Below are positions 3,809-23,556 of a stretch of DNA of 29,570 bases, one piece after another. Position numbers and translations under genes: made by a program. Source of the DNA: a virus (Duplodnaviria > Heunggongvirae > Uroviricota > Caudoviricetes); the IMG/VR virus record IMGVR_UViG_2778261297_000001; one strand, 5' to 3'. Position 1 is the first letter of the stretch. Every line of letters begins with the position of its first letter. The notes beneath the pieces are model-generated. The model did not search any database. It worked only from the letters and a program-made list of their open reading frames with translations, and had not been told where the DNA came from.

Positions 3809-6798
<2,990 letters not shown>

Positions 6799-6824
<26 letters not shown>

Positions 6825-7344
6825 TCAGCAACCCCGGTATCAGTTCATCCAGCGCGGCTGCTTTGTTCATGGCTTTGATGATATCCCGTTTCAGGAAATC
6901 AACATGTCGGTTTTCCAGTTCCGGAAAACGCCGCTGCACCGACAGGGGGATCCCGTCGAGAATACTGGCAATTTCACCTGCGATCCGCGACAGCACGAAA
7001 GTACAGAATGCGGTTTCCACCACTTCAGCGGAGTCTCTGGCATTTTTCAGCTCCTGTGCGTCGGCCTGCGCACGCGTAAGTCGATGGCGTTCGTACTCAA
7101 TAGTCCCTGGCTGGAGATCTGTCTCGCTGGCCTGCCGCAGTTCTTCAACTTCCCGGCGCAGCTTTTCGTTCTCAATTTCAGCATCCCTTTCGGCATACCA
7201 TCTTATAACGGCGGCAGAGTCATAAAGCACCTCATTACCCTTGCCACCGCCTCGCAGAACGGGCATTCCCTGTTCCTGCCAGTTCTGAATGGTACGGATA
7301 CTCGCACCGAAAATGTCAGCCAGCTGCTTTTTGTTGACTTCCAT
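6799..7344 (-). CDS. nu1: Terminase small subunit Nu1 (181 aa)
   Basis: Translation MEVNKKQLADIFGASIRTIQNWQEQGMPVLRGGGKGNEVLYDSAAV.. matches lambda Nu1; winged-HTH N-terminus. Confidence 0.9.
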
Positions 7345-7439
7345 TGTTCATTCCACGGCCAAAAACAGAGAAAGGAAACGACAGAGGCCCAAAAGCTCGT
7401 TTTCAGCACCTGTCGTTTCCTTTCTTTTCAGGGGGTATT

Positions 7440-7610
7440 TTAAATAAAAACATTAAGTTACGACGAAGAAGAACGGAAATGCCTTAAACCGGAAAATTTT
7501 CATAAATAGCGAAAACCCGCGAGGTCGCCGCCCCGTAACCTGTCGGATCGCCGGAAAGGACCCGCAAAATGATAATAATTATCATCTGCATGTCACAACG
7601 TGCATCTACG
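7440..7610 (-). other. cos: Lambda-type cos site (cosQ-cosN-cosB); cosN 12-nt cohesive end at 7522-7533
   Basis: Minus-strand sequence GGGCGGCGACCTCGCGGGTTTTCGCTATTTATGAAAATTTTCCGGTTTAAGGC.. recalled as lambda left end; flanking ..GATCCGACAGGTTACG recalled as lambda right end (cosQ side). Confidence 0.85.
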
Positions 7611-7732
7611 CAATCAAACCACGTCAAATAATCAATTATGACGCAGATATCGTATTAATTGATCTGCATCAACTTAACGTAAAAACAACTTCAGACAATA
7701 CAAATCAGCGACACTGAATACGGGACAACCTC

Positions 7733-7966
7733 ATGTCAACGAAAAACAGAACCCGCAGAACAACAACCCGCAACATCCGCTTTCCTAACCAAATGATTGA
7801 ACAAATTAACATCGCTCTTGAGCAAAAAGGGTCCGGGAATTTCTCAGCCTGGGTCATTGAAGCCTGCCGCCGGAGACTGTGCTCAGAAAAAAGAGTTTCT
7901 TCTGAAGCAAACAAAGAAAAGAGTGACATTACTGAATTGCTCAGAAAACAGGTCAGACCAGATTGA
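7733..7966 (+). CDS. ynfO: Small prophage protein YnfO-like (77 aa), function unknown
   Basis: 77-aa ORF MSTKNRTRRTTTRNIRFPNQMIEQINIALEQKGSGNFSAW..; position and length match Qin ynfO from memory. Confidence 0.6.
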   Translation: MSTKNRTRRTTTRNIRFPNQMIEQINIALEQKGSGNFSAWVIEACRRRLCSEKRVSSEANKEKSDITELLRKQVRPD

Positions 7967-8023
7967 AGCAATTTAGATAATCGTGCAGACTACGCCCCCT
8001 CATATCACATGGAAGGTTTATCT

Positions 8024-8434
8024 ATGGATCAGGTAGTCATTTTTAAACAAATATTTGATAAAGTTCGAAACGATTTAAACTATCAATGGTTTTATTCTGA
8101 GCTAAAACGTCACAATGTCTCACATTACATTTACTATTTAGCCACAGAGAATGTTCATATTGTATTAAAAAATGATAATACAGTGTTATTAAAGGGCCTA
8201 AAAAACATTGTGTCTGTCAAATTTTCAAAGGATAGGCATCTTATAGAAACGACCTCTAATAAGCTGAAATCCAGAGAGATCACATTTCAGGAATACAGAA
8301 GAAACCTTGCTAAAGCAGGAGTTTTTCGGTGGGTTACAAATATCCACGAACAAAAAAGATATTACTATACCTTTGATAATTCATTACTATTTACTGAAAG
8401 CATCCAGAAAACTACACAGATCTTACCACGCTAA
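8024..8434 (+). CDS. ydfO: YdfO (DUF1398 family, 136 aa), function unknown
   Basis: [34 protein letters not shown].. recalled as YdfO; AT-rich moron-like composition. Confidence 0.7.
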
Positions 8435-8585
8435 ACCATAACGTCCGGCTTCTCTCACTCCTGAGCCGGACTGCATTGGTTTAATAAAAACCATCAACAA
8501 TTGTGATTTAGATATTCGGAACCATTCAAATATAACAAAACCCCGTAAAAACGAGGTTTATGGATAAATTTTATTATTGAATACA

Positions 8586-8759
8586 TCAGATTAAATTAAT
8601 CTTGACATCATAGCTTTCAAGACCCGTCATTTTTTCCCGTGCGGTAAACTGAATACTGGTAACTTCTTTCCCGGTCTTTTTCTTAAGTTCAATAATTTTT
8701 TTTGTTATATATTCAGAAATATCTGCTTCTGCTTTTGTTTTTAAGTTTTCAATATTCAT
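8586..8759 (-). CDS. gnsB: GnsB-like small protein (57 aa)
   Basis: Manual minus-strand translation MNIENLKTKAEADISEYITKKIIELKKKTGKEVTSIQFTAREKMTGLESYDVKINLI; below the 60-aa ORF track threshold; Gns family. Confidence 0.7.
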   Translation of the reverse strand: MNIENLKTKAEADISEYITKKIIELKKKTGKEVTSIQFTAREKMTGLESYDVKINLI

Positions 8760-8930
8760 CATTTCCTCTTTTAGTCTGTTATGACTTTCCAGTTACACAG
8801 TAAGTCGATTATATGGTGCAAACGTGTAAAAGATAAGATGAAACATCGCAATAATCAACATACGATAGTCTAAATTTTACACAAACAGACAAAGAGAATT
8901 TTCCTGAATTATCAATGCAATAGCATCAAA

Positions 8931-9086
8931 TCAACTCAAGAGCCTTATTGCTGCTTCCAGAATTTCTTCTGAAGTAACATGTCGATCCGCGGCTACATAA
9001 ATGACTTTATGATCTCCGGTCAGAGATGGAAACCCTGCGGCCATTACAGTAAGGTGTGTTTTTTCGCCATTTGGATATTCACGCAT
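8931..9086 (-). CDS. ynfN: Small cold-shock-associated protein YnfN-like (51 aa)
   Basis: ORF ..MREYPNGEKTHLTVMAAGFPSLTGDHKVIYVAADRHVTSEEILEAAIRLLS; start choice among three in-frame Met is uncertain. Confidence 0.55.
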   Translation of the reverse strand: MREYPNGEKTHLTVMAAGFPSLTGDHKVIYVAADRHVTSEEILEAAIRLLS

Positions 9087-9431
9087 GATGGTGTTAACTC
9101 CAGTCATCGCTGGCACTACCACTGCTGGTTCAGAGTTAAAAAAACTATGATTTTTTTCATGATGTTACCGTAGTATGTGAGTATCCATCGAATAGACACC
9201 AAGCAAAAAAGCTCCCGAAGGAGCCTTCATTTTCACTTTTTTAAATCCAACGACAGACGGCTGGCATTTAAGTATTGTGAAATATTATCAAATGTAATCA
9301 TCATTGATTTACAAAAGATACATTTTGCCCCGAAAGGATTCATGTCAGAAACATCAAAAGATGATGTTCTATACTGGGAACCATGACAACACGGGCATCT
9401 AAAGTGAATATGGTTTGTAATATTGTCTACC

Positions 9432-9644
9432 TCAAAGCGCCACTACATGAACAGCGGCAGGACCTTTAGGTCCGTTCTCAATACCAAATTCAACTTCCTG
9501 ATTCTCAGTTAATGTTTTGAAATCGTTGCTCTGAATTGCTGAGAAATGGACAAACACATCTTTGCTGCCATCTTTCGGCGTGATGAAACCAAAACCTTTT
9601 TCAGGGTTAAACCATTTCACTAAACCAGTCATTTTGTTAGACAT
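9432..9644 (-). CDS. cspI: Cold shock protein CspI (70 aa)
   Basis: CspA-family cold shock domain with RNP motifs KGFGFI and VFVHF; sequence recalled as CspI. Confidence 0.9.
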
Positions 9645-10005
9645 AATTATTACCTTTTGAAGAAATTAGCCCTTGGGCAGAATGGTCCGAAAAAAATATC
9701 AGAGAGAAAAACCAACAAGGAAATCTCAAGAGGTACAAATAATAAAATTATAACAATGACTGCTTCAGATAAATTTGTAACAAACCAGAACACCATTAAC
9801 GCATGATTAACCACCCATAGCAAGGATTACTTTTGTAAAGAAAAACACAGCAATGAAAGAATAGCTTTATTTATTAATAAAACGTGTCATTCTGATTAAG
9901 ACCTTTTATCTTACCCTTAAGATTTCAGGAATTTTGGCTCATGGAAGAGTCCTTTTTATTTAAATTTTACATTCCGCGATGTAAATGTTCCGATTTAATA
10001 TTACC

Positions 10006-11033
<1,028 letters not shown>

Positions 11034-11088
11034 GGATATTTATCAGGATGCTACCAATGAAAGATACTGGAAAGCCAACTGCAAAAAG

Positions 11089-11403
11089 CTAACAACCCGT
11101 AATCGAGTTATCTGAACTGTTAATTTTTATGGTATACCGAGCCTCTGAACAGGGTCGCGTTTCTGGCAACAGCTCGTCCCCTTCACATAACCCGGCAGCA
11201 ACATCCAGGAAGACCTGTCTGATGCTCCTTCTGGCTGCTGCCTCATAAAACTCCAGCGCGGCACCTTCAACACGGTCCAGCGAGATGTCCAGGTCAAAAA
11301 TTTCACCGTCAAAGCGTTCTTTGTCCCGTAACGCTAAAGTTACCGTAACTTTATTCTCAAAATTGCGGATCCCTTTCACAATCAGTTCATATTTTTGAGT
11401 CAT
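11089..11403 (-). CDS. ydfR: YdfR-like protein (104 aa), function unknown, between holin and endolysin
   Basis: ORF MTQKYELIVKGIRNFENKVTVTLALRDKERFDGEIFDLD..; position inside lysis cassette. Confidence 0.65.
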   Translation of the reverse strand: MTQKYELIVKGIRNFENKVTVTLALRDKERFDGEIFDLDISLDRVEGAALEFYEAAARRSIRQVFLDVAAGLCEGDELLPETRPCSEARYTIKINSSDNSITGC

Positions 11404-11407
11404 TGAA

Positions 11408-11623
11408 TTACTCTCCCCGTGCAGCCTTACGCTTGTCTTCTTTAATCTTGAAATAAAGGTTTGTCAGATACGTCAGCATGCCAAATACCAGACTACCCAA
11501 TACACCTATTGCCGCCCACTGTGAGGGCGTGACTTTATCGAGCAACTGTAAAAACCAGTAGCCAGCACTGCCTGCAGAGGTGCTGTAGGCGATGCCCGTT
11601 GTTAACTTATCCATGGATTTCAT
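11408..11623 (-). CDS. essQ: Class II holin (phage 21 S-like pinholin, 71 aa) with dual-start motif MKSM
   Basis: Translation [71 protein letters not shown]; two TM helices; matches S21 family from memory. Confidence 0.85.
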
Positions 11624-11813
11624 AGCCTCACCTCCGCAGATAACGGATGGTGTACACGGTTTGGTTCGAAGAAGGAAAGAAGTTACATTAGCGTAAGGCC
11701 CGAACATCTATTCAAAAAGAAAAACGCCAGCAATTATTCTGGCGTAGCTAAAAATATCGTATAATCTTACACTTCAAAAAATAACTTTATAAAATGCCAT
11801 CACATCATATCTT

Positions 11814-12536
11814 CTAAGAAAATCTTGATAAATATTGGTGCGGAGGCACACCAAAATATCCTCTAAAAACACTTACAAAATATGATGCATTGTCATACCC
11901 GCATATTCCCGCCACCTTGCCGACAGTATGGTTACTGTAGATCAATAATCTTTGCGCCATCATCATTCGTTCTTCAAGAATTAATTTACTAAACGATAAT
12001 CCTTCGTCTTTTAATTTTCTTTTTAACAAACTCTCGCTCATATATAATCTTGAAGATATATCACAAAGTCTCCATGACGCTGAGATATCCGAGTGAATAA
12101 TAGCCTTAACTTTACAACCTAAGCTATTAAGACTTCCGAACAAAAAACTTTGCACTATTTTCTCTGAAGATAAGACAGCAAGACATGCAAGTGATATTTG
12201 ATTTCTAACTACATCCACGGTTTTGCTATCACAATTCAAGCATGCAACCAAGTTCTTTAACAATGAAAAATCTTCACATTCTACTATCAAGTATGACGGA
12301 TAAAACCTTCTTACAGAAAAAGGTGAGAGTGTGTAGTTTTTAAAGAAATCATTAACTGTTTTCTCCTCAACATCTACGATCATTAGATGATCTGTATTTG
12401 ACGAAAAAAGATCTTTTAAATTGTATTCAATGAGAACAGCATTTCCTTTTTTAAACAAAATATCTTCTTTACCAATTCGGACACCAAACGAGTTCAACAC
12501 CAAAATGATAGAACATATGTATGGCATATTATCCAC
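11814..12536 (-). CDS. AraC/XylS-family transcriptional regulator (240 aa), prophage moron
   Basis: C-terminal AraC-type HTH signature (..GKVAGICGYDNASYFVSVFRGYFGVPPHQYL); AT-rich gene between late promoter and holin. Confidence 0.8.
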   Translation of the reverse strand: MDNMPYICSIILVLNSFGVRIGKEDILFKKGNAVLIEYNLKDLFSSNTDHLMIVDVEEKTVNDFFKNYTLSPFSVRRFYPSYLIVECEDFSLLKNLVACLNCDSKTVDVVRNQISLACLAVLSSEKIVQSFLFGSLNSLGCKVKAIIHSDISASWRLCDISSRLYMSESLLKRKLKDEGLSFSKLILEERMMMAQRLLIYSNHTVGKVAGICGYDNASYFVSVFRGYFGVPPHQYLSRFS

Positions 12537-12933
12537 CTGATATCATTGGGGTTACACCAGGTAAGTATAGGTGGAAAATCAATATTCGCCAGTTCAACAA
12601 TAAGGAAAATCTCATTGCATCACAACTATAAAACCATGTGTTTAACTCACAAAAAACAAATCATTAAACTAATCTGTTATATTATAATAGCTGCGTGCAA
12701 TAATAATATTATATGCTCTTAATATTCACTTGAAATATCTTCATATAAAAACAGATTGAATAAAATCTTTTGGGGCTGGTATGTTTACCAACATTAAATT
12801 GCATCTCAATGTTTTCTTTAGCGTGAACAGGATTTTTATAAAAACTGACACTATGAGCATCATAGCGTAGTTTTTACGATTGTAAATATCCTGCATACAG
12901 GAACTCATCACTTTCAGATGATATCGCATACAG

Positions 12934-13893
12934 TTAATTCACCATCAGTCTTAGAGCCAGTTCTTCCGGATAGGGATCGAAGTAATTCTGTGTAAGCAAG
13001 TAATCATTAGGATACTCACCCAGATAATGCTTCAGCAGAGTCAACGGCGCAAGAAGAGGCAATGTGCCAAAGCGATAGTTAAGTATAACCTCGCTCAACT
13101 CTTTACGCTGGCGTGTACTTAAGTAATTACTAAAATACCCCTGTATATGCATCAGCACATTCGTGTGATTTTTACGTGATGCTGGTTTTCTGAGAATCGC
13201 CATCAGATTATCACGATACACCTCAAAGTATGATTCAAGGTCCGCCCACTCGTGTATTGCAGCCACAAATGGTCCCATATCTTTATAGCCTGCCTGGCTA
13301 TGCGCCAACAACTGAAGCTTATAACGACTATGAAAAGCTAATAACTCTCTTCTTGATAATTTCTCCTTGTAAAGGTGATTGAGCTCATGCAAAGCAAAAA
13401 CTCTTTCAATAAAATTCTCACGAAGCACTGGATCATGTAATCGCCCATCCTCTTCAACCGGTAGCCAGGAAAACTTTTCCATCAAAGTGCTCGTAAATAG
13501 TCCCACTCCATCTTTACGACCTCGATTACCATTTTCATCATAGACACGCACGCGCTCCATGCCACAGCTGGGAGATTTAGCACAAACCACAAACCCCGAT
13601 ACATCCTTTAATTTGTCCATATAAGAACGACTAAACTCTGTCATTCTCTCTGTCACATCCTCATTCTGGTCGTGGCTGAAACACATCCGTATATTTCCTT
13701 GCTTCGAGCGCACAAGTCGTAGAGCAGGACGCGGAACTGGCAGCCCTATAGCCATTTCCGGACATACTGGTCTGAATGTTACCCATTCCACTAATTTGTC
13801 CATTAAAAAGTCATCTCTTTTGTGACCACCATCAAAACGAACAGCAGAACCGCCCAAACAACCGCTGATCCCAATCACAGGTTTTTTTATCAT
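12934..13893 (-). CDS. DUF523 (TudS-like thiouracil desulfidase fold) fused to DUF1722 (YbgA-like) protein, 319 aa
   Basis: N-terminal motifs GISGCLGG..VRFDGG, PVCPE and KSPSCG resemble DUF523/TudS Fe-S ligand motifs; C-terminal half resembles YbgA/DUF1722; domain assignment from memory. Confidence 0.7.
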   Translation of the reverse strand: MIKKPVIGISGCLGGSAVRFDGGHKRDDFLMDKLVEWVTFRPVCPEMAIGLPVPRPALRLVRSKQGNIRMCFSHDQNEDVTERMTEFSRSYMDKLKDVSGFVVCAKSPSCGMERVRVYDENGNRGRKDGVGLFTSTLMEKFSWLPVEEDGRLHDPVLRENFIERVFALHELNHLYKEKLSRRELLAFHSRYKLQLLAHSQAGYKDMGPFVAAIHEWADLESYFEVYRDNLMAILRKPASRKNHTNVLMHIQGYFSNYLSTRQRKELSEVILNYRFGTLPLLAPLTLLKHYLGEYPNDYLLTQNYFDPYPEELALRLMVN

Positions 13894-14085
13894 TTCCTCC
13901 CCCTTGACTAATTCATTAACACATAAACTTTGTAGTGCACGGACTAAATTGCCTTTCTGGCTTCATCACTGACAATTTTTCTGTTATTGACTATTCCTAA
14001 TATAGTAGGAAAGTTCTTTAAGTGATCGGTCGTACTCATCTATCTTTCATACTTACTCTCAACTATCAAAAGTACAGGATTTATT

Positions 14086-14610
14086 ATGAAGTTATGGCCT
14101 GTGTTGACTGGCATTGCACTCTCTTTCACTCTTATAGCATGTAAGGCCCCGACACCACCTAAAGGTGTGCAGCCGATTACAAATTTTGACGCCAACCGCT
14201 ACCTCGGAAAATGGTATGAAATAGCTCGCCTCGAGAACTGGTTCGAACGTGGTCTGGAACAGGTCAGCGCTACTTATGAAAAACGGAACGACGGAGGGAT
14301 TCGCGTACTTAACCGTGGATACGATCCAACGAAAAACAAATGGAGCGAGAGCGAAGGTAAAGCATACTTTACTGGAGATACTAAAACTGCAGCGTTGAAA
14401 GTTTCGTTTTTTGGCCCCTTCTATGGTGGCTATAATGTAATCAAACTGGATGATGAGTATAAGTATGCTCTTGTCAGTGGTCCGAACAGAGAATACCTAT
14501 GGATTCTGGCAAGGACCCAAACTATTCCAGATAATGTAAAAGCAGACTATGTGCGTACCGCTCAAAAGTTGGGATTCAATGTCAATGAACTATTATGGGT
14601 TAAACAATAA
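14086..14610 (+). CDS. Bacterial lipocalin (Blc-like) outer-membrane lipoprotein, 174 aa
   Basis: Signal peptide with lipobox LIAC; lipocalin motifs GKWYEIAR and FFGPFYGGYNVI; about 60 percent identical by eye to E. coli Blc. Confidence 0.85.
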   Translation: MKLWPVLTGIALSFTLIACKAPTPPKGVQPITNFDANRYLGKWYEIARLENWFERGLEQVSATYEKRNDGGIRVLNRGYDPTKNKWSESEGKAYFTGDTKTAALKVSFFGPFYGGYNVIKLDDEYKYALVSGPNREYLWILARTQTIPDNVKADYVRTAQKLGFNVNELLWVKQ

Positions 14611-14636
14611 AATCCCCACCCGAAATGATACTTATT

Positions 14637-14665
14637 AGAAAAAAACCAGCCTTTGGGGAGGCTGG
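14637..14665 (-). terminator. Rho-independent terminator on minus strand about 100 nt downstream of Q (candidate tR')
   Basis: Hairpin CCAGCCT-loop-AGGCTGG followed on minus strand by run of 8 T. Confidence 0.55.
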
Positions 14666-14765
14666 CTAAATCAGGAAACAAGCTGTTATATGATAATAAC
14701 TACGTTGCGATTCCAACATTTAAAATGTTAGACTAATGAAAATCAGACAGCAACTTTTCCTTTAA

Positions 14766-15158
14766 TTATTTCGAACAATCAGCATCCATCTCCAATCGGA
14801 GATCCAACACCATCAGCATGCCCTCCACTACGCCCTCAGCTTTCTGGAGCATCCTGCCAACCCAACAATCAGATCGCCCATGCTTACGTGCAAGCGCCAT
14901 AAAAGTCATGCCGCCGACATAATAGTCCACCAATAAATCATGTAAATCGCTGTTGTTTTTTTTCAGGCGAGCCATACATTCACAAATGATCATCGCGTCA
15001 TCGTCACAGCATTGCGGACGAGATCTTACTTTTGAAGGAATTAATCCCTTAAAACCGGCGGCAATGGACGACCAGGTCACATCTTCATGATTATTAGCCG
15101 CCCATGCCCCCCAACGCTCAAGAACCATCTGAATATCACGCATCAACTTACTCCACAA
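14766..15158 (-). CDS. Late antiterminator Q, small 21/82/933W-type family (about 125-130 aa)
   Basis: Cys-rich Zn-binding region ([17 protein letters not shown]) and overall similarity to small Q proteins of lambdoid Stx-type phages; located immediately upstream of terminator and late genes. Confidence 0.7.
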
Positions 15159-15160
15159 AA

Positions 15161-16210
15161 TTAGGCCAGCACACCAATTGCCAGCGCGCGATCGATAAAT
15201 CGAAAAATCAGCTCCAGTTGGGAGCCATACTTCTCTTCAAATGCCACGGTATCCGTATGCAACTCGTCGTGATGCTTTCTGCACAAAGGCAACACAAAGA
15301 GATCATGTGCTTTGGTTCCCATTCCGCCCTGCCCGTGACCAATCAGATGATGCGGATCGTCGGCTGGCATACCGCAGCAAGCACACGGCTGTGTCTTAAC
15401 CCAGCGTGTGTATTTCTCCTTAACCCAACGGTGACGTTTAGGCAGCTTCATGAAAGATTCCGGAGACTCTGGATCAACGGTGATGCTTACCACCGTCTTT
15501 TCTTGTGATGGGTTTTGTTGCTGGTGGGCGTGAGGCAACGGTGCAAGATTTTTTGTGCGCTGTTTCAGTATGCTGGTGGCGGTCTGCTCTCCCGGTACGA
15601 TGTCGCTTTCACGGTACATTGAGCGGATTTTTTCCGCACGCAACCCCAGCGAACGACGTAATACCGCTTCCGGTAGCGCGTCCGCCACCTGATTGCGGAC
15701 CGCCCACCAGGATAATTCAGCCAGAGATAATTCACGCTCCTGCGTACCGCTTATTGCGTGACCGATGACGTCAATCATCCATGCTGACAGGTTTTGATGA
15801 GCTAGTTGCTCGAGTGATTCGGATGTCTGGTCACGCAGCTGGTTGTCGCAGTGCCAGCACAACACCATTGCGCCGGTACCATAACGGTGAATGACGGTTT
15901 CGCTGTGATGATAATCGCCGTGTGGCCACTGGCAGGATTTAATATGGCGCAACAGCCAGTCAGACAATGCACCAGCACCACCAGCAGCACGAATCACCCG
16001 TGCGTTACTGAAAAACGGCAGCAATGTTTTGTCTTCCACCAGCGGCTGGCGAGCGGCAGGAACGACCCCGGACGGCAGATTACGCATGCTTTTCGGTTCC
16101 GGCTCCACCAGTAACCGGGTATTGTGGAATACCGGCATGGGTTCACGGCCCGGCTTAACGATCACCAGCCCGAGTTCCGGTACCAGAACAGGTCGAAGTA
16201 ATACCCGCAC
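15161..16210 (-). CDS. DUF968 protein (YdfU-like, 349 aa) with C-terminal HNH/Zn-ribbon-like motif
   Basis: C-terminal [43 protein letters not shown] cysteine/histidine cluster; nin-region position upstream of Q. Confidence 0.7.
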
Positions 16211-16211
16211 G

Positions 16212-16490
16212 TTACCTCCAGATGCGTTGCTGGAATGTGCGGGACGGACGCGGTGGGCGTTCGGAGTAAGGAAGCCTGACGGAGATTATCCAGTGACGGT
16301 AGTCGAGGCTAAGGGCTTTTTTAACCTCGCATCCGCGCCTGCGGTAACACTGAATGAGCCATTCGGCCTGTTCTTCAGTGCATGGGGGATGCTGGTACCA
16401 GTCTGACTTAAATGCGTGAGAATACCGCTCGTGCGTGTGGGCAAGAACGGTCGAATTATCATGATTGTAATATTTTGCGTTGCGTGCCAT
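16212..16490 (-). CDS. DUF1364 (YbcO-like) putative nuclease, 92 aa
   Basis: Small Cys/His-rich ORF (..HPPCTEEQAEWLIQCYRRRGCE..) resembling YbcO family; tightly packed between rem-like and DUF968 genes. Confidence 0.6.
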   Translation of the reverse strand: MARNAKYYNHDNSTVLAHTHERYSHAFKSDWYQHPPCTEEQAEWLIQCYRRRGCEVKKALSLDYRHWIISVRLPYSERPPRPSRTFQQRIWR

Positions 16491-16556
16491 CGGTTTTCTC
16501 CGGTGGCACGGTGTTACTCAGCGGGAGTTCAGCCCCGCGCAAGATTGTAGATGAGT

Positions 16557-16808
16557 TTATTCTTCTGAAAAAGCAGAAAAGCCAGCTTTTATTCCGATCT
16601 CTTTCAATGCCTGTAATGAAGTGACAAACTCACCGTCGCGCAAGATAAATCCGTCCGTCACTCGGGCATCCACATAATTAATTAACGCAGCCCCATTTTT
16701 TTGCAAACACACAATGCGGTAATGACTAGCAATATTTCCATTTTCAACGCACACAGCATAGAGGCCATCTTCACAAAAAATTTTACGCAGTTCTTCGATG
16801 TTCATCAT
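16557..16808 (-). CDS. rem: Rem-like small protein (83 aa), function unknown
   Basis: 83-aa ORF MMNIEELRKIFCEDGLYAVCVENGNIASHYRIV..; position downstream of hokD as in Qin. Confidence 0.55.
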   Translation of the reverse strand: MMNIEELRKIFCEDGLYAVCVENGNIASHYRIVCLQKNGAALINYVDARVTDGFILRDGEFVTSLQALKEIGIKAGFSAFSEE

Positions 16809-16924
16809 CAGAATCCTTCCGGATAATTAGCTCTCCCCTTTAAGGGACCATCCCTCTTATCCCTGCGCGCTACTTAAGTATTTTTGATTCTATTCCGGCA
16901 CCATCCAGAACTTCAAATGCGTTG

Positions 16925-16954
16925 AAAATAAAAACAAAAACCCGCCGAAGCGGG
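16925..16954 (-). terminator. Rho-independent terminator downstream of hokD (end of relB-relE-hokD operon)
   Basis: Minus-strand hairpin CCCGCTTCGGCGGG followed by TTTTTGTTTT. Confidence 0.6.
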
Positions 16955-17024
16955 TTAAGTGCGGGTGCGTTGAGGATGCCTGCCACATCAGAGGTGGCGA
17001 GGGATTTCTCACTCGCCGAGTCTC

Positions 17025-17180
17025 TTACTCCTCAGGTTCGTAAGCTGTGAAGACAGCGACCTCCGTCTGGCCGGTTCGGATTCGTACCTCGCAGAGGTCT
17101 TTCCTCGTTACCAGTGCCGTCACTATGACGGTTAAACAGATGACGATCAGGGCGATTAACATCGCCTTTTGCTGCTTCAT
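17025..17180 (-). CDS. hokD: Hok-family membrane toxin HokD/RelF (51 aa)
   Basis: Manual translation MKQQKAMLIALIVICLTVIVTALVTRKDLCEVRIRTGQTEVAVFTAYEPEE; below ORF track threshold. Confidence 0.85.
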   Translation of the reverse strand: MKQQKAMLIALIVICLTVIVTALVTRKDLCEVRIRTGQTEVAVFTAYEPEE

Positions 17181-17251
17181 AGCCTGCTTCTCCTGTCAAC
17201 GCAAAGCAGAAGTGTCACCTTCGGTGCGAAACAGAGATGTCATGCTTTGGT

Positions 17252-17539
17252 TCAGAGAATGCGTTTGACCGCCTCGCTATATACTTCCGAGCGTTCTCTT
17301 TTCCCAACAGAAATCACGAAAACGACAACTTTCTCGTCTATAACCTGGTATACAAGGCGATAGCCTGAAGACCGGAGCTTAATCTTGTAACAATCAGGCA
17401 TACCACGGAGCTTGTTTGCTTCAATCCGGGGTGACTCAAGTACTTCAACCAGCTTCTTTTTCAACTGTTCACGTACCGTCGAGCCCAGCTTTCGCCATTC
17501 CTTTAGTGCCCGCTCGTCAAAATCCAGAAAATACGCCAT
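17252..17539 (-). CDS. relE: RelE mRNA interferase toxin (95 aa)
   Basis: Full-length match from memory to RelE (MAYFLDFDERALKEWRKLGSTVREQLKKKLVEVL..). Confidence 0.92.
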   Translation of the reverse strand: MAYFLDFDERALKEWRKLGSTVREQLKKKLVEVLESPRIEANKLRGMPDCYKIKLRSSGYRLVYQVIDEKVVVFVISVGKRERSEVYSEAVKRIL

Positions 17540-17778
17540 CAGAGTTCATCCAGCGTCACACGTACTGGCTTAGGATTACGAAGCCGTTCTTTCACTATCT
17601 CCACAAGTTCAGCATCTTCATCACTCAGGAGTGTCTGTTTGAACGGCAAGCGTTCATTGTCAGCGATATACTCGAGCATGAGACGAAGCGCTTCAGAAGG
17701 AGTTACACCCATTTTTTCAAGCGCGGCGTAAGAACGCGCTTTAAGTTCATCGTCAATACGCAGGTTAATGCTACCCAT
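17539..17778 (-). CDS. relB: RelB antitoxin (79 aa)
   Basis: Full-length match from memory to RelB; stop overlaps relE start. Confidence 0.92.
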   Translation of the reverse strand: MGSINLRIDDELKARSYAALEKMGVTPSEALRLMLEYIADNERLPFKQTLLSDEDAELVEIVKERLRNPKPVRVTLDEL

Positions 17779-17784
17779 GTCTTA

Positions 17785-17820
17785 CACCTCTTGTAATTAC
17801 AAATGTCATTACAAGTATCG
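17785..17820 (-). promoter_or_regulatory. relBE promoter/operator region (relO) with TTGTAATTACAA-type inverted repeats
   Basis: Palindrome TTGTAATTACAA at 17791-17802 and related ATGTCATTACAAG at 17803-17815 directly upstream of relB start. Confidence 0.6.
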
Positions 17821-18108
17821 CACTACAACATGCTTAGGGCAAGTCACGAAGGAAGTCAGAAAGTAGTCGTAAGAACGGTGATCACTGTCCGCTTTCTGCC
17901 AGGAGCAGCCATTGCTAAGTCCATCCTGTATTGTGCAGGTCAGCTCGTTTTTAAAGAGTCCGGCCATCATCTTACTGGTACAGACACCATATACTTTGTG
18001 ACGGTCAGGCTACATATGCACAACTCAACTTATTCATCTATTTTTTGCTTTAGCATGTCAGTGTTGCTTTCTCGTCGGCGGGTGAGCGGTGACCTGACCT
18101 GTCGATAA
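17803..18108 (+). CDS. YdfV-like hypothetical protein (101 aa); may not be a real gene
   Basis: ORF of the expected length at the expected position between relB and flxA; no recognizable domain; overlaps relBE operator. Confidence 0.3.
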   Translation: MSLQVSHYNMLRASHEGSQKVVVRTVITVRFLPGAAIAKSILYCAGQLVFKESGHHLTGTDTIYFVTVRLHMHNSTYSSIFCFSMSVLLSRRRVSGDLTCR

Positions 18109-18260
18109 AGGAACGTAACACGTTTTATGCAACACCCGCATGCGGCAGAAAATTATTGCCGAACGTTTACCCCTGTCAACAAGCTTTACTTTCTGAGGCG
18201 CGCCAGCCCGCGAGGAAAACAATCTGAACATCAAACAATTAATGACACAAGAAATACGAT

Positions 18261-18287
18261 TAAAGATTTTTTTGTTCATGCCGATAG
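18261..18287 (+). promoter_or_regulatory. Sigma-28 (FliA) class III flagellar promoter of flxA
   Basis: TAAAGATT - 11 nt - GCCGATAG matches FliA consensus TAAAGTTT-N11-GCCGATAA; 24 nt upstream of flxA ATG with AGGAGA RBS. Confidence 0.7.
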
Positions 18288-18310
18288 TGCTTTTTTAAAA
18301 GGAGAAATCT

Positions 18311-18643
18311 ATGTCTGTCACAATTCAGGGAAATACCTCAACCGTTATTTCAAACAACTCCGCCCCGGAAGGAACATCAGAAATAGCCAAAATCACAAGA
18401 CAAATTCAGGTGCTGACTGAAAAGCTTGGGAAAATCTCATCGGAAGAGGGGATGACGACACAGCAGAAAAAAGAAATGGCTGCATTGGTACAGAAGCAAA
18501 TTGAAAGCCTCTGGGCTCAACTGGAGCAGTTGTTAAGGCAGCAGGCAGAGAAAAAGAATGAAGACGCGACAGTTCAGCCTGATAAAAAAGAAGAGAAAAA
18601 AGACGATACAAATACCGCTGGCACCATTGATATTTACGTCTAA
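18311..18643 (+). CDS. flxA: FlxA (FliA-regulated protein, 110 aa)
   Basis: Translation MSVTIQGNTSTVISNNSAPEGTSEIAKITRQIQVLTEKL.. recalled as FlxA. Confidence 0.85.
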   Translation: MSVTIQGNTSTVISNNSAPEGTSEIAKITRQIQVLTEKLGKISSEEGMTTQQKKEMAALVQKQIESLWAQLEQLLRQQAEKKNEDATVQPDKKEEKKDDTNTAGTIDIYV

Positions 18644-18657
18644 GTGACAGCCGTATT

Positions 18658-18682
18658 GTGGCCCTCATCGGGCCACTTTTCG
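18658..18682 (+). terminator. Rho-independent terminator of flxA
   Basis: Hairpin GTGGCCC-TCATC-GGGCCAC followed by TTTTCG, 15 nt after flxA stop. Confidence 0.6.
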
Positions 18683-19079
18683 CCATCAGCCTTTTCTTTA
18701 AAGACATATTATCTTTGTATCATTTCTGATAGTTAACATTACAAGATATAAGTAATGGACGCACTCCCAATTAGTCTATTTAAATCGCCACGAGTTTAAC
18801 TGACAACCCATGATCAATTATGAATTGCAACTATTTCTGTAGTCACTTTTGTGGGGACAGTCCACAAAACTGCCAACTTCCGCTTCTTGCTCTTAGCGGA
18901 CATTAGCATAGGCTATTTACCATAACGCCTCATTACGCGCACCGCCCAGACTGACTCAGCGCGTTTCTGGCATATCCCCGGTAAAACAAGTAACAAACCA
19001 CCCGAAAATGAACACCAGAAACGCGACTTAAGAATCTACCCTATGAATGGATATGCACTCAACCGAATCGATCTTGGTT

Positions 19080-20009
19080 TCAATCTTTTTTATCGGGATC
19101 AGGCTTCTTTTTAGGTAACTTCGGGGGCTTAACTTGCTGATGACTTTGCGTTCGGCGCGTAAGCCAGGGATGGTCAGCTTTAGGTTTAACATAGTATTTT
19201 GAGCGTAAATCAATACGGGCATTATCCACTCGTTCATGGACACTCTTTTCATCATCCAGTGGTATAGGCTCCGGGCCATCAACATACTTTTCCCAGCCCA
19301 GCGCTTTCCCGTCATACAGAACGTTAATTTCACCGTCAAAGTTCTCGCATACAGTAACAACCGAATGCCTAAGTCGATATCCCCGGCTCTCACTGCGTAC
19401 CTGAAACGCACTGCTTTTGTACTGGAAAGTGAGATTTTTAGACAGAACGCGCTTCGCCTGTAGGCTGAAGATATAACCCAGTTCCTCTTCAGAATGGTGC
19501 ACATCAAGATGAGCATTATCAGTAGTACGAGGCGACGTAGCGAACCGGTTGTTATAGGCTTCAATAAAAGTCGGCAACCATGCATTTGCTGTTTCAATAT
19601 CACTGATATTCTGAAGCCGCATTTCTTTGACCAGCCTGTCCTGTAGTGTCTGATTGGCGCGCTCTACCCGCCCTTTTGCCTGCGGGCTGTTGGCATGGAT
19701 TGGCTCGATGCCCAGTGTCTTTATCGCACGAGTGAACTGGGTCAGCTCACCTTCCCGCTCTGGGTTATTTACCCTGAATATACTGTGTCTATCAGAGTAG
19801 AGAGCGAGCGGTACGCCATGATCATTAAGGTAACCCCGGAGGGTTTCCATGTAAGCCCGGGTTGTTTCAGCAGGCACAAAACGCAACGCCATCAACGCAC
19901 TGGTGGCATCATCAATGAAAACGATCAGTGTACATCTGGGGCCTCGATTTTCAAACCAGTCATGAGGTGAGCCATCAATCTGGATCAGTTCACCGTAAGA
20001 TGGTTGATC
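19080..20009 (-). pseudogene. rve (DDE integrase-core) family transposase/integrase fragment, N-terminally truncated
   Basis: DDE signature ..IQIDGSPHDWF.., ..LALYSDRHSIF.., ..SPQAKGRVERANQTLQDRL..; reading frame extends upstream of annotated Met to a stop at 20010-20012 with no HTH domain; GC-richer than flanking prophage DNA. Confidence 0.7.
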
Positions 20010-20386
20010 TTACCCAGCAATAGTGGACACGCGGCTACCCGCGTTAGTAGCTAATCAACAAAGCTAAGGTTAGTAATTAAGGAGTTCTCCACGGGTGAGG
20101 TGGAGTGCGTGCGCCGGACACGGGTGAGCATCCGGCACTGACAGTTTACTGAAAGGATATTTCCCTGAAAAGTCAGACCATAACGCGAAAGCGCACGGCG
20201 AGGTAGCTGGTTCATAGATAGCCTGTCGTTAAATTTTCGTCGACCGTGCGCTTCCGGTTGTGGCAACCCGCGAAATGGCGCGGCGGTAAGTATGGCGGGG
20301 TTATTCCTTCCCCGTTGAGGACACCGGGTTGTCAGGTTGACCATACGCTTAAGTGACAACCCCGCTGCAACGCCCTCTGTTATCAA

Positions 20387-20444
20387 TTTTCTGGTGACGT
20401 TTGGCGGTATCAGTTTTACTCCGTGACTGCTCTGCCGCCCTTTT
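20387..20444 (+). ncRNA. dicF: DicF small regulatory RNA (about 53 nt plus terminator U-tail)
   Basis: Sequence TTTCTGGTGACGTTTGGCGGTATCAGTTTTACTCCGTGACTGCTCTGCCGCCCTTTTT matches DicF from memory, including the UUUCUGGUGACG seed and intrinsic terminator. Confidence 0.75.
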
Positions 20445-20614
20445 TAAAGTGAATTTTGTGATGTGGTGAATGCGGCTGAGCGCACGCGGAACAGTTAAAA
20501 CCAAAAACAGTGTTATGGGTGGATTCTCTGTATCCGGCGTTAATTGTTAACTGGTTAACGTCACCTGGAGGCACCAGGCACTGCATCACAAAATTCATTG
20601 TTGAGGACGCGATA

Positions 20615-20803
20615 ATGAAAACGTTATTACCAAACGTTAATACGTCTGAAGGTTGTTTTGAAATTGGTGTCACTATCAGTAACCCAGTATTTACTGAAGA
20701 TGCCATTAACAAGAGAAAACAAGAACGGGAGCTATTAAATAAAATATGCATTGTTTCAATGCTGGCTCGTTTACGTCTGATGCCAAAAGGATGTGCACAA
20801 TGA
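20615..20803 (+). CDS. dicB: Cell division inhibitor DicB (62 aa)
   Basis: Internal Met of ORF gives MKTLLPNVNTSEGCFEIGVTISNPVFTEDAINKRKQERELLNKICIVSMLARLRLMPKGCAQ; GAGGA RBS upstream. Confidence 0.75.
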   Translation: MKTLLPNVNTSEGCFEIGVTISNPVFTEDAINKRKQERELLNKICIVSMLARLRLMPKGCAQ

Positions 20804-20991
20804 ATTCAGCATTTGTGCTTGTTCTGACAGTTTTTCTTGTTTCCGGAGAGCCAGTTGATATTGCAGTCAGTGTGCACAGGACAATGCAGGAGTGTATGAC
20901 TGCAGCAACCGAACAGAAAATTCCCGGTAACTGTTACCCGGTCGATAAAGTTATTCACCAGGATAATATCGAAATCCCGGCAGGTCTTTAA
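20800..20991 (+). CDS. ydfD: YdfD small membrane lysis protein (63 aa)
   Basis: MNSAFVLVLTVFLVSGEPVDIAVSVHRTMQECMTAATEQK..; start overlaps dicB stop (ATGA), N-terminal TM helix. Confidence 0.7.
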   Translation: MNSAFVLVLTVFLVSGEPVDIAVSVHRTMQECMTAATEQKIPGNCYPVDKVIHQDNIEIPAGL

Positions 20992-21084
20992 AACAGTTCC
21001 GTAATAAATATCCGGTTTCATTCTTATATGCCAGCAATGGCAGGGATTTGTTCATCCTTAAATCTGTCATGAGGTTAAAACAAA

Positions 21085-23556
21085 ATGAGTAAAGTCTTTA
21101 TTTGCGCCGCTATTCCTGACGAACTGGCAACAAGGGAAGAAGGCGCTGTGGCTGTAGCCACAGCCATTGAAGCTGGCGACGAACGCCGTGCTCGAGCAAA
21201 ATTTCACTGGCAGTTCCTGGAACATTATCCGGCTGCTCAGGACTGCGCTTATAAATTTATTGTCTGCGAGGATAAACCTGGCATACCCCGCCCTGCCCTC
21301 GATTCATGGGATGCTGAATATATGCAGGAAAACCGCTGGGATGAGGAGTCTGCTTCTTTTGTCCCGGTTGAGACTGAATCCGATCCGATGAACGTCACTT
21401 TTGACAAGCTGGCCCCTGAAGTACAGAACGCTGTCATGGTTAAGTTCGACACATGTGAAAACATCACCGTTGATATGGTTATTAGCGCACAGGAATTGTT
21501 GCAGGAAGACATGGCAACATTCGACGGACATATCGTTGAAGCGTTGATGAAAATGCCAGAAGTTAACGCCATGTATCCGGAGCTTAAGTTGCACGCCATT
21601 GGGTGGGTTAAGCATAAATGTATTCCTGGTGCTAAATGGCCCGAAATTCAGGCAGAGATGCGCATCTGGAAAAAACGTCGCGAAGGTGAACGCAAGGAAA
21701 CCGGAAAATACACGTCTGTTGTTGATCTCGCCCGCGCCAGAACCAATCAACAGTACACTGAAAATTCAACAGGAAAAATCAGCCCGGTCATTGCTGCCAT
21801 TCATCGCGAATACAAGCAGACATGGAAAACACTGGATGACGAACTGGCCTACGCTCTCTGGCCTGGTGATGTGGATGCCGGAAACATTGACGGCAGCATC
21901 CATCGCTGGGCAAAAAAAGAAGTTATCGACAACGACCGCGAAGACTGGAAGCGTATCTCGGCATCAATGCGCAAACAGCCTGATGCCCTTCGCTACGACC
22001 GCCAGACTATTTTTGGCCTTGTCCGTGAGCGTCCGATCGACATTCACAAAGATCCCATAGCACTGAACAAATATATCTGCGAATACCTGACGACAAAGGG
22101 CGTGTTTGAGAATGAAGAAACAGACCTGGGCACTGTTGATGTTCTCCAGTCATCAGAAACACAAACTGATGCAGTGGAAACTGAGGTATCTGATATCCCA
22201 AAAAATGAAACCGCGCCGGAAGCTGAACCATCTGTAGAGCGTGAGGGGCCGTTCTATTTCCTCTTCGCAGATAAGGACGGAGAAAAATACGGTCGCGCAA
22301 ACAAACTTTCTGGTCTGGATAAGGCACTGGCTGCTGGCGCCACTGAAATCACAAAAGAAGAATATTTTGCCCGAAAAAATGGCACATACACGGGCTTACC
22401 GCAAAATGTAGATACCGCTGAAGATTCAGAACAACCAGAGCCGATAAAAGTTACCGCTGACGAAGTAAACAAAATTATGCAGGCAGCCAATATCAGCCAG
22501 CCTGACGCCGATAAGTTGCTTGCTGCATCACGTGGTGAATTTGTTGAAGGGATTAGTGACCCGAATGATCCGAAATGGGTTAAGGGGATCCAGACCCGCG
22601 ATTCTGTGAACCAGAACCAGCATGAATCGGAACGGAACTACCAAAAAGCGGAACAAAACAGCACAAATGCGTTACAAAACGAGCCAGAAACGAAACAGCC
22701 TGAACCAGTGGCGCAACTGGAAGTGGAAAAAGTCTGCACCGCCTGCGGTCAGACCGGCGGCGGCAACTGCCCTGATTGTGGCGCGGTGATGGGCGACGCA
22801 ACATACCAGGAAACATTCGATGAAGAGTATCAGGTTGAAGTTCAGGAAGATGATCTGGAGGAAATGGAAGGCGCTGAACATCCACACAAGGAGAACACTG
22901 GCGGCAATCAGCATCACAATAGCGATAATGAAACTGGCGAGACGGCAGATCACTCAATTAAGGTGAACGGTCATCACGAAATCACATCCACCAGCAGGAC
23001 GTGTGACCATCTAATGATCGACCTTGAAACCATGGGAAAAAATCCTGATGCCCCGATCATCTCAATAGGTGCAATATTTTTCGATCCGCAAACCGGAGAT
23101 ATGGGACCGGAATTTAGTAAGACTATCGATCTGGAAACTGCTGGCGGAGTCATTGATCGGGACACCATTAAATGGTGGCTTAAGCAATCACGCGAAGCGC
23201 AATCTGCCATTATGACCGATGAAATCCCGTTAGATGATGCACTGTTACAATTGCGGGAATTTATCGACGAAAACTCCGGTGAATTTTTTGTTCAGGTTTG
23301 GGGAAATGGAGCCAACTTCGACAACACGATTTTGCGCCGTTCATACGAACGGCAGGGGATCCCCTGCCCGTGGCGTTACTACAACGATCGCGATGTACGC
23401 ACAATCGTTGAGCTGGGGAAAGCCATAGACTTCGATGCCAGAACGGCTATTCCATTCGAAGGTGAGCGCCATAATGCACTTGATGACGCCCGTTACCAGG
23501 CAAAATACGTTTCAGTTATCTGGCAAAAACTGATCCCGAGTCAGGCTGATTCTTAA
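21085..23556 (+). CDS. RecE-like (exodeoxyribonuclease VIII-like N-terminal/middle region) protein with Zn ribbon and C-terminal DEDDh 3'-5' exonuclease domain, 823 aa
   Basis: Middle segment DADKLLAASRGEFVEGISDPNDPKWVKGIQTRD recalled from Rac RecE; CTACGQTGGGNCPDCG zinc ribbon; C-terminal motifs IDLETMG (Exo I), WGNGANFDNTIL (Exo II), HNALDDARYQ (Exo III). Confidence 0.8.
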   Translation: MSKVFICAAIPDELATREEGAVAVATAIEAGDERRARAKFHWQFLEHYPAAQDCAYKFIVCEDKPGIPRPALDSWDAEYMQENRWDEESASFVPVETESDPMNVTFDKLAPEVQNAVMVKFDTCENITVDMVISAQELLQEDMATFDGHIVEALMKMPEVNAMYPELKLHAIGWVKHKCIPGAKWPEIQAEMRIWKKRREGERKETGKYTSVVDLARARTNQQYTENSTGKISPVIAAIHREYKQTWKTLDDELAYALWPGDVDAGNIDGSIHRWAKKEVIDNDREDWKRISASMRKQPDALRYDRQTIFGLVRERPIDIHKDPIALNKYICEYLTTKGVFENEETDLGTVDVLQSSETQTDAVETEVSDIPKNETAPEAEPSVEREGPFYFLFADKDGEKYGRANKLSGLDKALAAGATEITKEEYFARKNGTYTGLPQNVDTAEDSEQPEPIKVTADEVNKIMQAANISQPDADKLLAASRGEFVEGISDPNDPKWVKGIQTRDSVNQNQHESERNYQKAEQNSTNALQNEPETKQPEPVAQLEVEKVCTACGQTGGGNCPDCGAVMGDATYQETFDEEYQVEVQEDDLEEMEGAEHPHKENTGGNQHHNSDNETGETADHSIKVNGHHEITSTSRTCDHLMIDLETMGKNPDAPIISIGAIFFDPQTGDMGPEFSKTIDLETAGGVIDRDTIKWWLKQSREAQSAIMTDEIPLDDALLQLREFIDENSGEFFVQVWGNGANFDNTILRRSYERQGIPCPWRYYNDRDVRTIVELGKAIDFDARTAIPFEGERHNALDDARYQAKYVSVIWQKLIPSQADS

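Follow-up and report, generated by a model that had tools for sequence, protein, structure and literature searches.

In lambdoid prophages, the slot between the late antiterminator gene Q and the holin gene carries different cargo in different elements, namely nmpC in DLP12, cspB and cspF in the Qin prophage of Escherichia coli K-12, and stx in the Shiga toxin (Stx) phages. The DNA analyzed here is a stretch of 29,570 nucleotides from a Caudoviricetes virus (IMG/VR record IMGVR_UViG_2778261297_000001; hereafter the window). Its Q-to-holin slot is the same classic lambdoid cargo position, and here holds intact genes of host origin for an AraC-family regulator, a RudS-type fusion protein and a Blc-type lipocalin. 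These genes probably form a common, stress-type lysogenic-conversion moron set lodged in a segment with a QuuD-type Q and an EssD-type holin, and consist of two parts of different origin, the lipocalin-rudS pair and araC.

Relatives of all three gene products have been described. Fusions of the TudS (DUF523) and DUF1722 domains, named RudS, strip sulfur from tRNA 4-thiouridine (s4U) (Jamontas et al., NAR 2024, PMC11417400). RudS overexpression cuts tRNA s4U 4.7- to 26-fold and lessens the growth delay induced by ultraviolet A (UVA) light (PMC11417400). One of the six enzymes assayed, RudS_vir, is encoded by phage 1H12 and lowered tRNA s4U on overexpression as did the five other orthologues (PMC11417400). 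E. coli itself was stated to lack RudS, its core genome having only the stand-alone DUF1722 protein YbgA (PMC11417400). Among 19 lambda-like phages from the gut, more than half carry the lipocalin gene blc, catalogued as a moron (Mathieu et al., Nat Commun 2020, PMC6969025). For the AraC-type regulators PatE and PsrB, activation of gadE and hdeAB and increased acid resistance have been reported (review PMC10877973). An earlier note on this DNA, made from the sequence alone, had not recognized the trio as a described module. That view does not hold, as the components are largely described: an allele of RudS 92% identical to that of the window has been assayed, blc is a known lambda moron, the AraC protein falls in a PatE/YdeO-like group, and the trio is present in 12 phage genomes. 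Modestly new are the chromosomal linkage of lipocalin and rudS, the shedding of MerR by the phage version, and the presence of RudS in about one-fifth of sequenced E. coli strains.

The Q-to-holin cargo and its distribution

The three open reading frames (ORFs) of the earlier note, at 11814-12536 (minus), 12934-13893 (minus) and 14086-14610 (plus), are confirmed with their proposed domains by Pfam matches (E 1e-16 to 1e-43), and none has a morphogenetic or lysis role, as had been proposed. Their placement between Q with its tR'-like terminator and the holin is also upheld by the Pfam families of the flanking genes and by a hairpin at 14667-14644, in agreement with the 14637-14665 first claimed. 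The genes of the slot are as follows.

11408-11623, minus: EssD-type class II holin, 71 aa (Pfam PF04971)
11814-12527 (237 aa, ATG start) or to 12536 (240 aa, GTG start), minus: araC, regulator of the PatE/YdeO/GadX-like group (HTH_18 and HTH_AraC)
12934-13893, minus: rudS, TudS(DUF523)-DUF1722 fusion, 319 aa (Pfam PF04463 and PF08349)
14086-14610, plus: Blc-type outer-membrane lipocalin lipoprotein, 174 aa (Lipocalin_2, PF08212, E 7.5e-43)
14766-15143 (125 aa), or to 15158 (130 aa) with an upstream TTG start, minus: late antiterminator Q, QuuD type (Pfam PF06530, E 8e-51)

The window is a Qin-like lambdoid prophage, of which positions 4066-23045 are ~99% identical to the region annotated as Qin in E. 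coli 13P484A, one internal deletion excepted. On the minus strand, reading from 15158 to 11408, the order is Q, a hairpin, the lipocalin gene (on the opposite strand), a 192-bp intergenic region, rudS, a spacer, araC, a second hairpin and the holin gene. Compared to K-12 Qin, homology breaks off where ydfU ends (15161) and picks up again in essQ/ydfR (11652), with 11653-15160 replaced. As the earlier note had supposed, this is a slot for accessory cargo and cspB/cspF occupy it in K-12 Qin; they do so together with ynfS and ynfU, and the Q gene that precedes them is another one (ydfT, 250 aa). As K-12 Qin thus differs in both Q and cargo between the same flanks, Q and cargo were swapped together. 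DLP12 has the same slot, the same type of Q (the Q of the window is 86% identical to DLP12 QuuD) and the same type of holin (96% identity to K-12 EssD), and its cargo nmpC is likewise convergent with Q.

The free phages 1H12 and IdasGreatGrand share with the window a block at 11407-15185, from holin to Q, on otherwise different backbones. In both, the gene order is that of the window (holin, AraC-like protein, RudS, lipocalin, Q), and the holin is the left edge of the segment common to the free phages. The insert is missing from otherwise collinear relatives, as expected of a moron, having been replaced in K-12 Qin and having lost rudS and araC in the BL21 lineage.

Among 5426 complete E. coli genomes, 1154 have a match to a 3.07-kb segment of the cassette and 883 cover at least 80% of it. 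Given that rudS alone is found in 1136 of these genomes and the lipocalin gene alone in 1135, the two genes travel together; about 1040-1060 genomes retain at least 80% of each. A prophage rudS in ~20% of complete E. coli genomes corrects the published statement that E. coli lacks RudS, and strains may differ in tRNA 4-thiouridine and near-UV response through this gene. The earlier note had named a common, already characterized core-genome cluster as an outcome that would count against it. Common and characterized they largely are, but the cluster is accessory rather than part of the core genome.

Selection was assessed with three alleles, that of the window and those of the deposited phage genomes 1H12 and IdasGreatGrand. 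In each allele every one of the three reading frames is intact, at synonymous divergences (dS) of ~0.05-0.57. Pairwise ratios of nonsynonymous to synonymous divergence (dN/dS) are 0.20-0.25 for araC, 0.11-0.24 for rudS and 0.07-0.23 for the lipocalin gene, with 0.04-0.11 for Q. Based on the low dN/dS and the intact frames, the three genes are therefore maintained by purifying selection. Each of the three proteins has a dedicated PHROG family, labeled "unknown function".

In the BL21/C41(DE3) lineage, the cassette is partly decayed. The region at 1588189-1589585 of NZ_CP010585.1, corresponding to window positions 13747-15143, has the same Q and an intact lipocalin gene, whose product WP_000780584.1 is the same RefSeq protein as in 13P484A. 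The araC and lysis genes are gone and rudS is reduced to a 147-bp 5' stub beside an IS3 insertion sequence (IS). As the BL21 lineage retains the lipocalin gene and only a stub of rudS, the host of the published RudS assays is therefore without RudS but at least encodes the lipocalin. Elsewhere, IS3 and IS1 are found repeatedly within cassettes that are otherwise 99-100% identical (for example in NZ_CP073976.1 and NZ_CP147125.1), which points to a hot spot for insertion or, in some lineages, to a relaxation of selection.

RudS, the lipocalin and their chromosomal relatives

The 319-aa protein is RudS, a predicted [4Fe-4S] tRNA 4-thiouridine desulfidase. Its PF04463 2-thiouracil desulfurase domain spans residues 7-149 (E 5.8e-40) and its PF08349 (DUF1722) domain residues 192-309 (E 9.4e-40). 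Across all 319 residues it is 92% identical to RudS_vir (phage 1H12 gp66, H3V29_gp66), from which it differs at 26 residues. Cys12, Cys44 and Cys110 are the positions given for RudS_vir and RudS_ST in Table 1 of the RudS study (PMC11417400). Along with Glu46 and Ser107, these cysteines are invariant across 117 aligned sequences, while Ser109 is found in 115 of them; the RudS of the window keeps all six, and its CPE and SPSCG motifs align to TudS 6Z92. The window allele would be expected to act on s4U as RudS_vir does. RudS_vir has the same length and architecture, and its locus in 1H12 the same slot and neighbors (gp65 lipocalin, gp67 AraC-like protein, gp64 Q), although RudS_vir resides in a free Jouyvirus whereas the allele of the window is in a Qin-like chromosomal prophage.

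The lipocalin surpasses the cutoff of the NCBIfam Blc subfamily model (NF007786, score 312.6 versus 267), and its sequence matches in the PDB are 3MBT, 1QWD and 2ACO. Read from the translation, its N terminus (MKLWPVLTGIALSFTLIAC, then KAPTPP) includes a lipobox with Cys19 followed by Lys at +2; the signal ends L-I-A-C, without an inner-membrane-retention Asp at +2. Like E. coli Blc (b4149), it has the Lipocalin_2 fold, a lipoprotein signal and a similar length. However, it is a second, phage-borne paralog that belongs to a rudS-linked clade and not the core blc found beside ampC. It is 96% identical to 1H12 gp65, and K-12 Blc is only 59% identical to it, versus 73-79% for the copies beside merR-rudS. 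Binding of lysophospholipid or fatty acid is known for the structures of E. coli Blc (PDB 2ACO, 3MBT). The phage lipocalin is probably exported as an outer-membrane lipoprotein and, by analogy with Blc, may bind such lipids in the envelope.

The origin of the pair is indicated by its chromosomal relatives. In a protein scan with one genome per species, the closest lipocalins (73-79% identity) come from six Enterobacter species and from Leclercia, Buttiauxella, Huaxiibacter and Raoultella. In all 10 species, a RudS orthologue (70-72% identity) is encoded on the opposite strand 0.9-1.5 kb from that lipocalin. Between the two lies an MlrA-type MerR gene (MerR_1, MlrA_helical and MlrA_C in Pfam) in nine of the 10, often along with a transthyretin-like gene; Huaxiibacter is a natural chromosomal variant likewise without MerR. 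Lipocalins of at most 64% identity, including the lower-identity copies of Salmonella, Citrobacter freundii and Buttiauxella, are not beside RudS at the loci examined, the sole exception being a distant metagenome-assembled genome (MAG) with a 42%-identical RudS fragment ~3 kb from such a lipocalin. Buttiauxella izardii has both kinds of lipocalin, at 78% and 61% identity.

The phage pair consists of the same two genes in the same divergent orientation as this Enterobacter-group divergon, but the MerR and transthyretin-like genes are absent between them and an AraC gene is added downstream. Using an Enterobacter MerR protein as query, tblastn found no match in the window or in phage 1H12. Judged by gene content and orientation, the pair looks like a trimmed copy of the conserved chromosomal divergon rather than a chance juxtaposition. 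On this evidence, it descends from an Enterobacter-group unit of lipocalin, merR, optional transthyretin-like gene and rudS that lost MerR, a case of a chromosomal stress unit trimmed of its regulator upon phage capture. MerR neighbors and light-responsive operons are reported in the RudS paper, the main text of which never mentions a lipocalin (PMC11417400). That RudS is tied to one particular lipocalin paralog in at least five genera provides a lead to the function of that lipocalin.

Across Enterobacterales, chromosomes widely encode RudS orthologues of 70-76% identity, and these have other neighbors as well. In Citrobacter and Klebsiella, rudS ends a nine-gene operon coding for SnoaL_2, SDR, amine oxidase, DUF1365, CFA-synthase-like, DUF2878, chalcone-isomerase-like, DUF3833 and RudS proteins, with no Blc-type lipocalin among them. 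The 174/175-aa gene upstream of DUF3833-RudS was considered as a lipocalin candidate and rejected, as it has no BLASTP similarity and only a weak chalcone-isomerase-like match. On the contigs of Citrobacter braakii and Klebsiella grimontii (L008-L011, 110-6960), the amine oxidase is of the FAD type and a 177-aa DUF3833 protein is encoded directly before rudS. The operon resembles the light-inducible UfaM clusters of Pseudomonas.

In Salmonella Derby (JAEKZB010000008.1; L098, 4285-7814), a gene for a 73%-identical RudS adjoins a PF01171 (ATP_bind_3) gene, probably ttcA (tRNA 2-thiocytidine synthase). A phage-type DUF1367 gene is adjacent, a 780-bp upstream stretch is without a called gene, and no MerR gene or lipocalin is nearby; the region may represent what is left of a prophage at ttcA. 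A Q-lipocalin-rudS segment with 97-98% protein identity to the window is also present on the 2113-bp contig JARKOR010000135.1, labeled as part of a Candidatus Nanosynbacter MAG. This contig almost certainly derives from an E. coli prophage and was mis-binned into a Saccharibacteria MAG.

The AraC-family regulator

The start of araC is more likely the ATG at 12527, as in RefSeq, since homologues begin MP(Y/C)ICS. Pfam matches are confined to the C-terminal part of the protein, residues 161-237 (HTH_18, E 3.1e-16; HTH_AraC, E 6.1e-11). The best NCBIfam model is YdeO, which spans residues 4-234 with 112 bits versus a cutoff of 348, and the GadX model scores 90 versus an equivalog cutoff of 500. 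Sequence matches in the PDB are GadX, CsvR, Rns and ToxT, with a full-length alignment to ToxT and a match to the GadX DNA-binding domain (3MKL) at E 4e-21. The protein also matches phrog_1450 (E 3.7e-97). Over its full length (237 aa) it is 48% identical to an AraC protein of prophage CP-933H, encoded at ~309 kb in the O157 strain ATCC 43894. Like PatE, PsrA and PsrB as well as YdeO and GadX, it has ~240 aa and a C-terminal AraC helix-turn-helix, and it shares with the PatE-like regulators a prophage-borne gene of low GC content. Its location in the Q-to-holin slot differs from that of the PatE-like copies, which are near integrase or tail-fibre ends. A tblastn search of the 1.62-1.69 Mb region of O157 ATCC 43894, the positions expected for PsrA/PsrB in OI-50, found no AraC homologue.

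The araC gene has a GC content of 33%, versus 43-44% for rudS and the lipocalin gene and 46% for the window. Between the window and 1H12, its dS is 0.57, as compared to 0.29 for rudS and 0.18 for the lipocalin gene. Both the low GC and the higher dS indicate that araC has a history separate from that of the pair. Relatives of araC also occur on their own: one comes immediately after a PF03589-type Q in another prophage, phage ev099 has one between tail fibre and integrase, and one is in CP-933H. In E. coli CP028741.1 (L014, 8001-8714), a gene for a 38%-identical AraC protein directly follows a PF03589-type Q, with a SASA esterase gene and a holin downstream of it. An AraC relative in phage phiSTEC1575-Stx2k is likewise at the Q-proximal position, the usual stx slot. 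The Q-proximal position seems to be a recurrent home of this regulator family.

Expression, role and setting of the cargo

The noncoding elements relevant to expression of the cargo are listed here.

11724-11745, minus: intrinsic-terminator-like hairpin between araC and holin, ACGCCAG-AATAATTG-CTGGCGT then TTTTCTTTTT (scan)
12528-12933, minus: AT-rich spacer upstream of araC, ~400 bp, 31% GC, with a promoter-like site at 12886-12859 (scan, 10/12)
13894-14085, no strand: divergent intergenic region of rudS and lipocalin, 192 bp, 34% GC, presumed site of both lysogen-state promoters
14644-14765, minus: pR' region and tR'-like intrinsic terminator, hairpin 14667-14644 then T-run

The tR'-like hairpin (AGCCAGCC-TCCCCAAA-GGCTGGTT then TTTTTTC in the terminator scan) is kept in phage 1H12, and the hairpin after araC is kept in the 1H12 and IdasGreatGrand alleles although its flanks diverge. 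In a lysogen, transcripts from pR' would stop at tR' and each cargo gene would depend on its own promoter. After induction, Q-modified polymerase would pass tR', run antisense over the lipocalin gene, and transcribe rudS and araC along with the lysis genes. The earlier note had proposed that the cassette is driven from the late promoter. This can apply to only two of the genes, as the lipocalin gene is convergent with Q and hence antisense to late transcription, a terminator follows araC, and rudS and araC, on the same strand as Q and the lysis genes, are the only cargo genes readable from pR'. The opposite orientation of the lipocalin gene and the conserved hairpin after araC fit self-contained morons.

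Lysogenic conversion, one of the roles put forward in the earlier note, is the most plausible reading of the cargo. Under this reading, RudS would remove sulfur from s4U at tRNA positions 8/9 via its [4Fe-4S] cluster, lowering a near-UV-sensitive tRNA mark and shortening the UVA-induced growth delay, while the lipocalin would act in the envelope. The AraC protein most likely would turn on host acid-stress genes, and possibly neighboring genes. The analysis shows what the genes are, that they are conserved and under purifying selection, how they are distributed and where the pair originated; when they are expressed, what this RudS allele does, what the lipocalin binds and which targets the AraC protein has are inferred.

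Several observations weigh against lysogenic conversion or weaken its support. No phage in the collection encodes full-length RudS without this lipocalin or the reverse; the two co-occur in 12 E. coli lambdoid phages, each with an AraC homologue as well. Given that these 12 are closely related, 11 bearing Lambda_/ev names from a single gut-phage collection, their agreement is not independent evidence. IS3/IS1 insertions and deletions are frequent within the cassette, indicating that the cargo is dispensable under many conditions. In the published assay, RudS_vir was the less active enzyme for its protein level (PMC11417400). A promoter scan of the 192-bp intergenic region found no consensus sigma-70 site. 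Further, the region did not align to the Enterobacter lipocalin-merR intergenic region beyond ~10 bp beside the start codon; with the two unalignable, inheritance of regulation by the phage pair is unproven. Finally, the CP-933H comparator of the AraC protein is probably PatE (Z0321, OI-8), a name assigned from genome position and a review, there being no named record.

Alternatively, the cargo could serve the lytic cycle. UV-containing light induces lambdoid prophages via the SOS response, and its near-UV part cross-links s4U8 to C13 in tRNA and stalls translation. If rudS and araC were made mainly after induction, erasure of s4U might keep translation going during virion production. The strand shared with Q and the lysis genes and the lack of a strong terminator between tR' and rudS in the scan are consistent with such a role, as are the lessened UVA growth delay on RudS overexpression (PMC11417400) and the retention of the cassette by isolated phages whose genomes are deposited, 1H12 and IdasGreatGrand among them. 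However, the antisense lipocalin gene is not accounted for, the conserved terminator after araC is typical of self-contained morons, and the chromosomal ancestor is a stress operon and not a phage function. In addition, late expression would leave little time to alter the tRNA pool, and RudS might not act on already cross-linked tRNA. A lytic role is unlikely, though it is the likeliest of the alternatives.

The anti-phage cassette suggested in the earlier note fares worse. It would require that the lipoprotein mask a receptor like Cor and Llp or that altered tRNA block incoming phages, and it draws on the frequent presence of exclusion genes in the Q-to-holin slot and among prophage morons, on the location of the lipocalin as a surface-compartment lipoprotein, and on the gut-phage survey, in which morons mostly encode membrane proteins, including sie (PMC6969025). 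Yet none of the three proteins matches a PADLOC-DB family at E <= 0.1, and the lipocalin fits the Blc subfamily model, a housekeeping one. Moreover, the activity of RudS is defined as tRNA demodification, and the pair derives from a stress locus of the chromosome (merR-rudS) without phage context. Superinfection exclusion is accordingly improbable, which removes a candidate "new defence cassette". Slightly more improbable still is that the genes are functionless and persist solely by linkage to the Q-holin segment. While the common IS3/IS1 insertions and partial deletions, and the rudS stub of the BL21 lineage, would be in line with hitch-hiking, it is at odds with a dN/dS of 0.07-0.25 in the three genes and frames intact in every allele compared, with the presence of all six checked RudS residues, and with the large number of genomes that keep most of each gene.

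Beyond lysogenic conversion as such, the lipocalin and RudS could constitute one conserved near-UV/photo-oxidative stress unit, in which an eraser of the tRNA photosensor is paired with an envelope lipid-binding protein. The chromosomal unit would be under an MlrA/LitR-like MerR, and in lambdoid phages of about one-fifth of E. coli strains it would be without MerR, beside a PatE/YdeO-like AraC protein and under Q antitermination. We hold this idea with little confidence. If true, strains would differ in tRNA s4U, in UVA growth delay and perhaps in acid tolerance on account of a prophage, and the lipocalin would have a role in the same pathway.

As to the flanking genes, Q is probably the 125-aa protein encoded at 14766-15143, in line with the 378-bp version annotated in RefSeq. 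For the holin, a 99-aa ORF starting from 11707 was rejected because a 23-bp deletion in phage 1H12 takes out its ATG; the GGAGG-ATG at 11623 is conserved, and RefSeq also annotates a 71-aa holin. In the spacer upstream of araC, the stretch 12623-12718 is not common to phage 1H12, and a 62-aa ORF at 12741-12929 was rejected as coding, having no Pfam or PHROG match. A 26-nt direct repeat (22/26 identical) joins the region upstream of araC (12671-12696) and the pR' leader between Q and tR' (14680-14705). BL21, 1H12 and IdasGreatGrand all keep the pR'-side copy, but the two phages lack the one on the araC side, and the repeat was dismissed as a meaningful link, being probably due to chance or allele-specific.

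Elsewhere in the window, homology to the 13P484A Qin-like prophage (L001) ends upstream of 4066, within the portal gene region. At 20004-20036 the window lacks a 5.7-kb block (L001 22306-28062) with an ISEsa1 remnant, pseudogenes, replication genes and a Cro/CI-type repressor pair. Given the loss of homology upstream of 4066 and the missing block, the prophage of the window is therefore defective. An Rfam scan found no RNA family within the cassette; its gathering-level matches in the window are IS009 at 3843-4041 (minus), the cspA thermoregulator upstream of cspI at 9405-9789 (minus) and DicF at 20389-20440 (plus).

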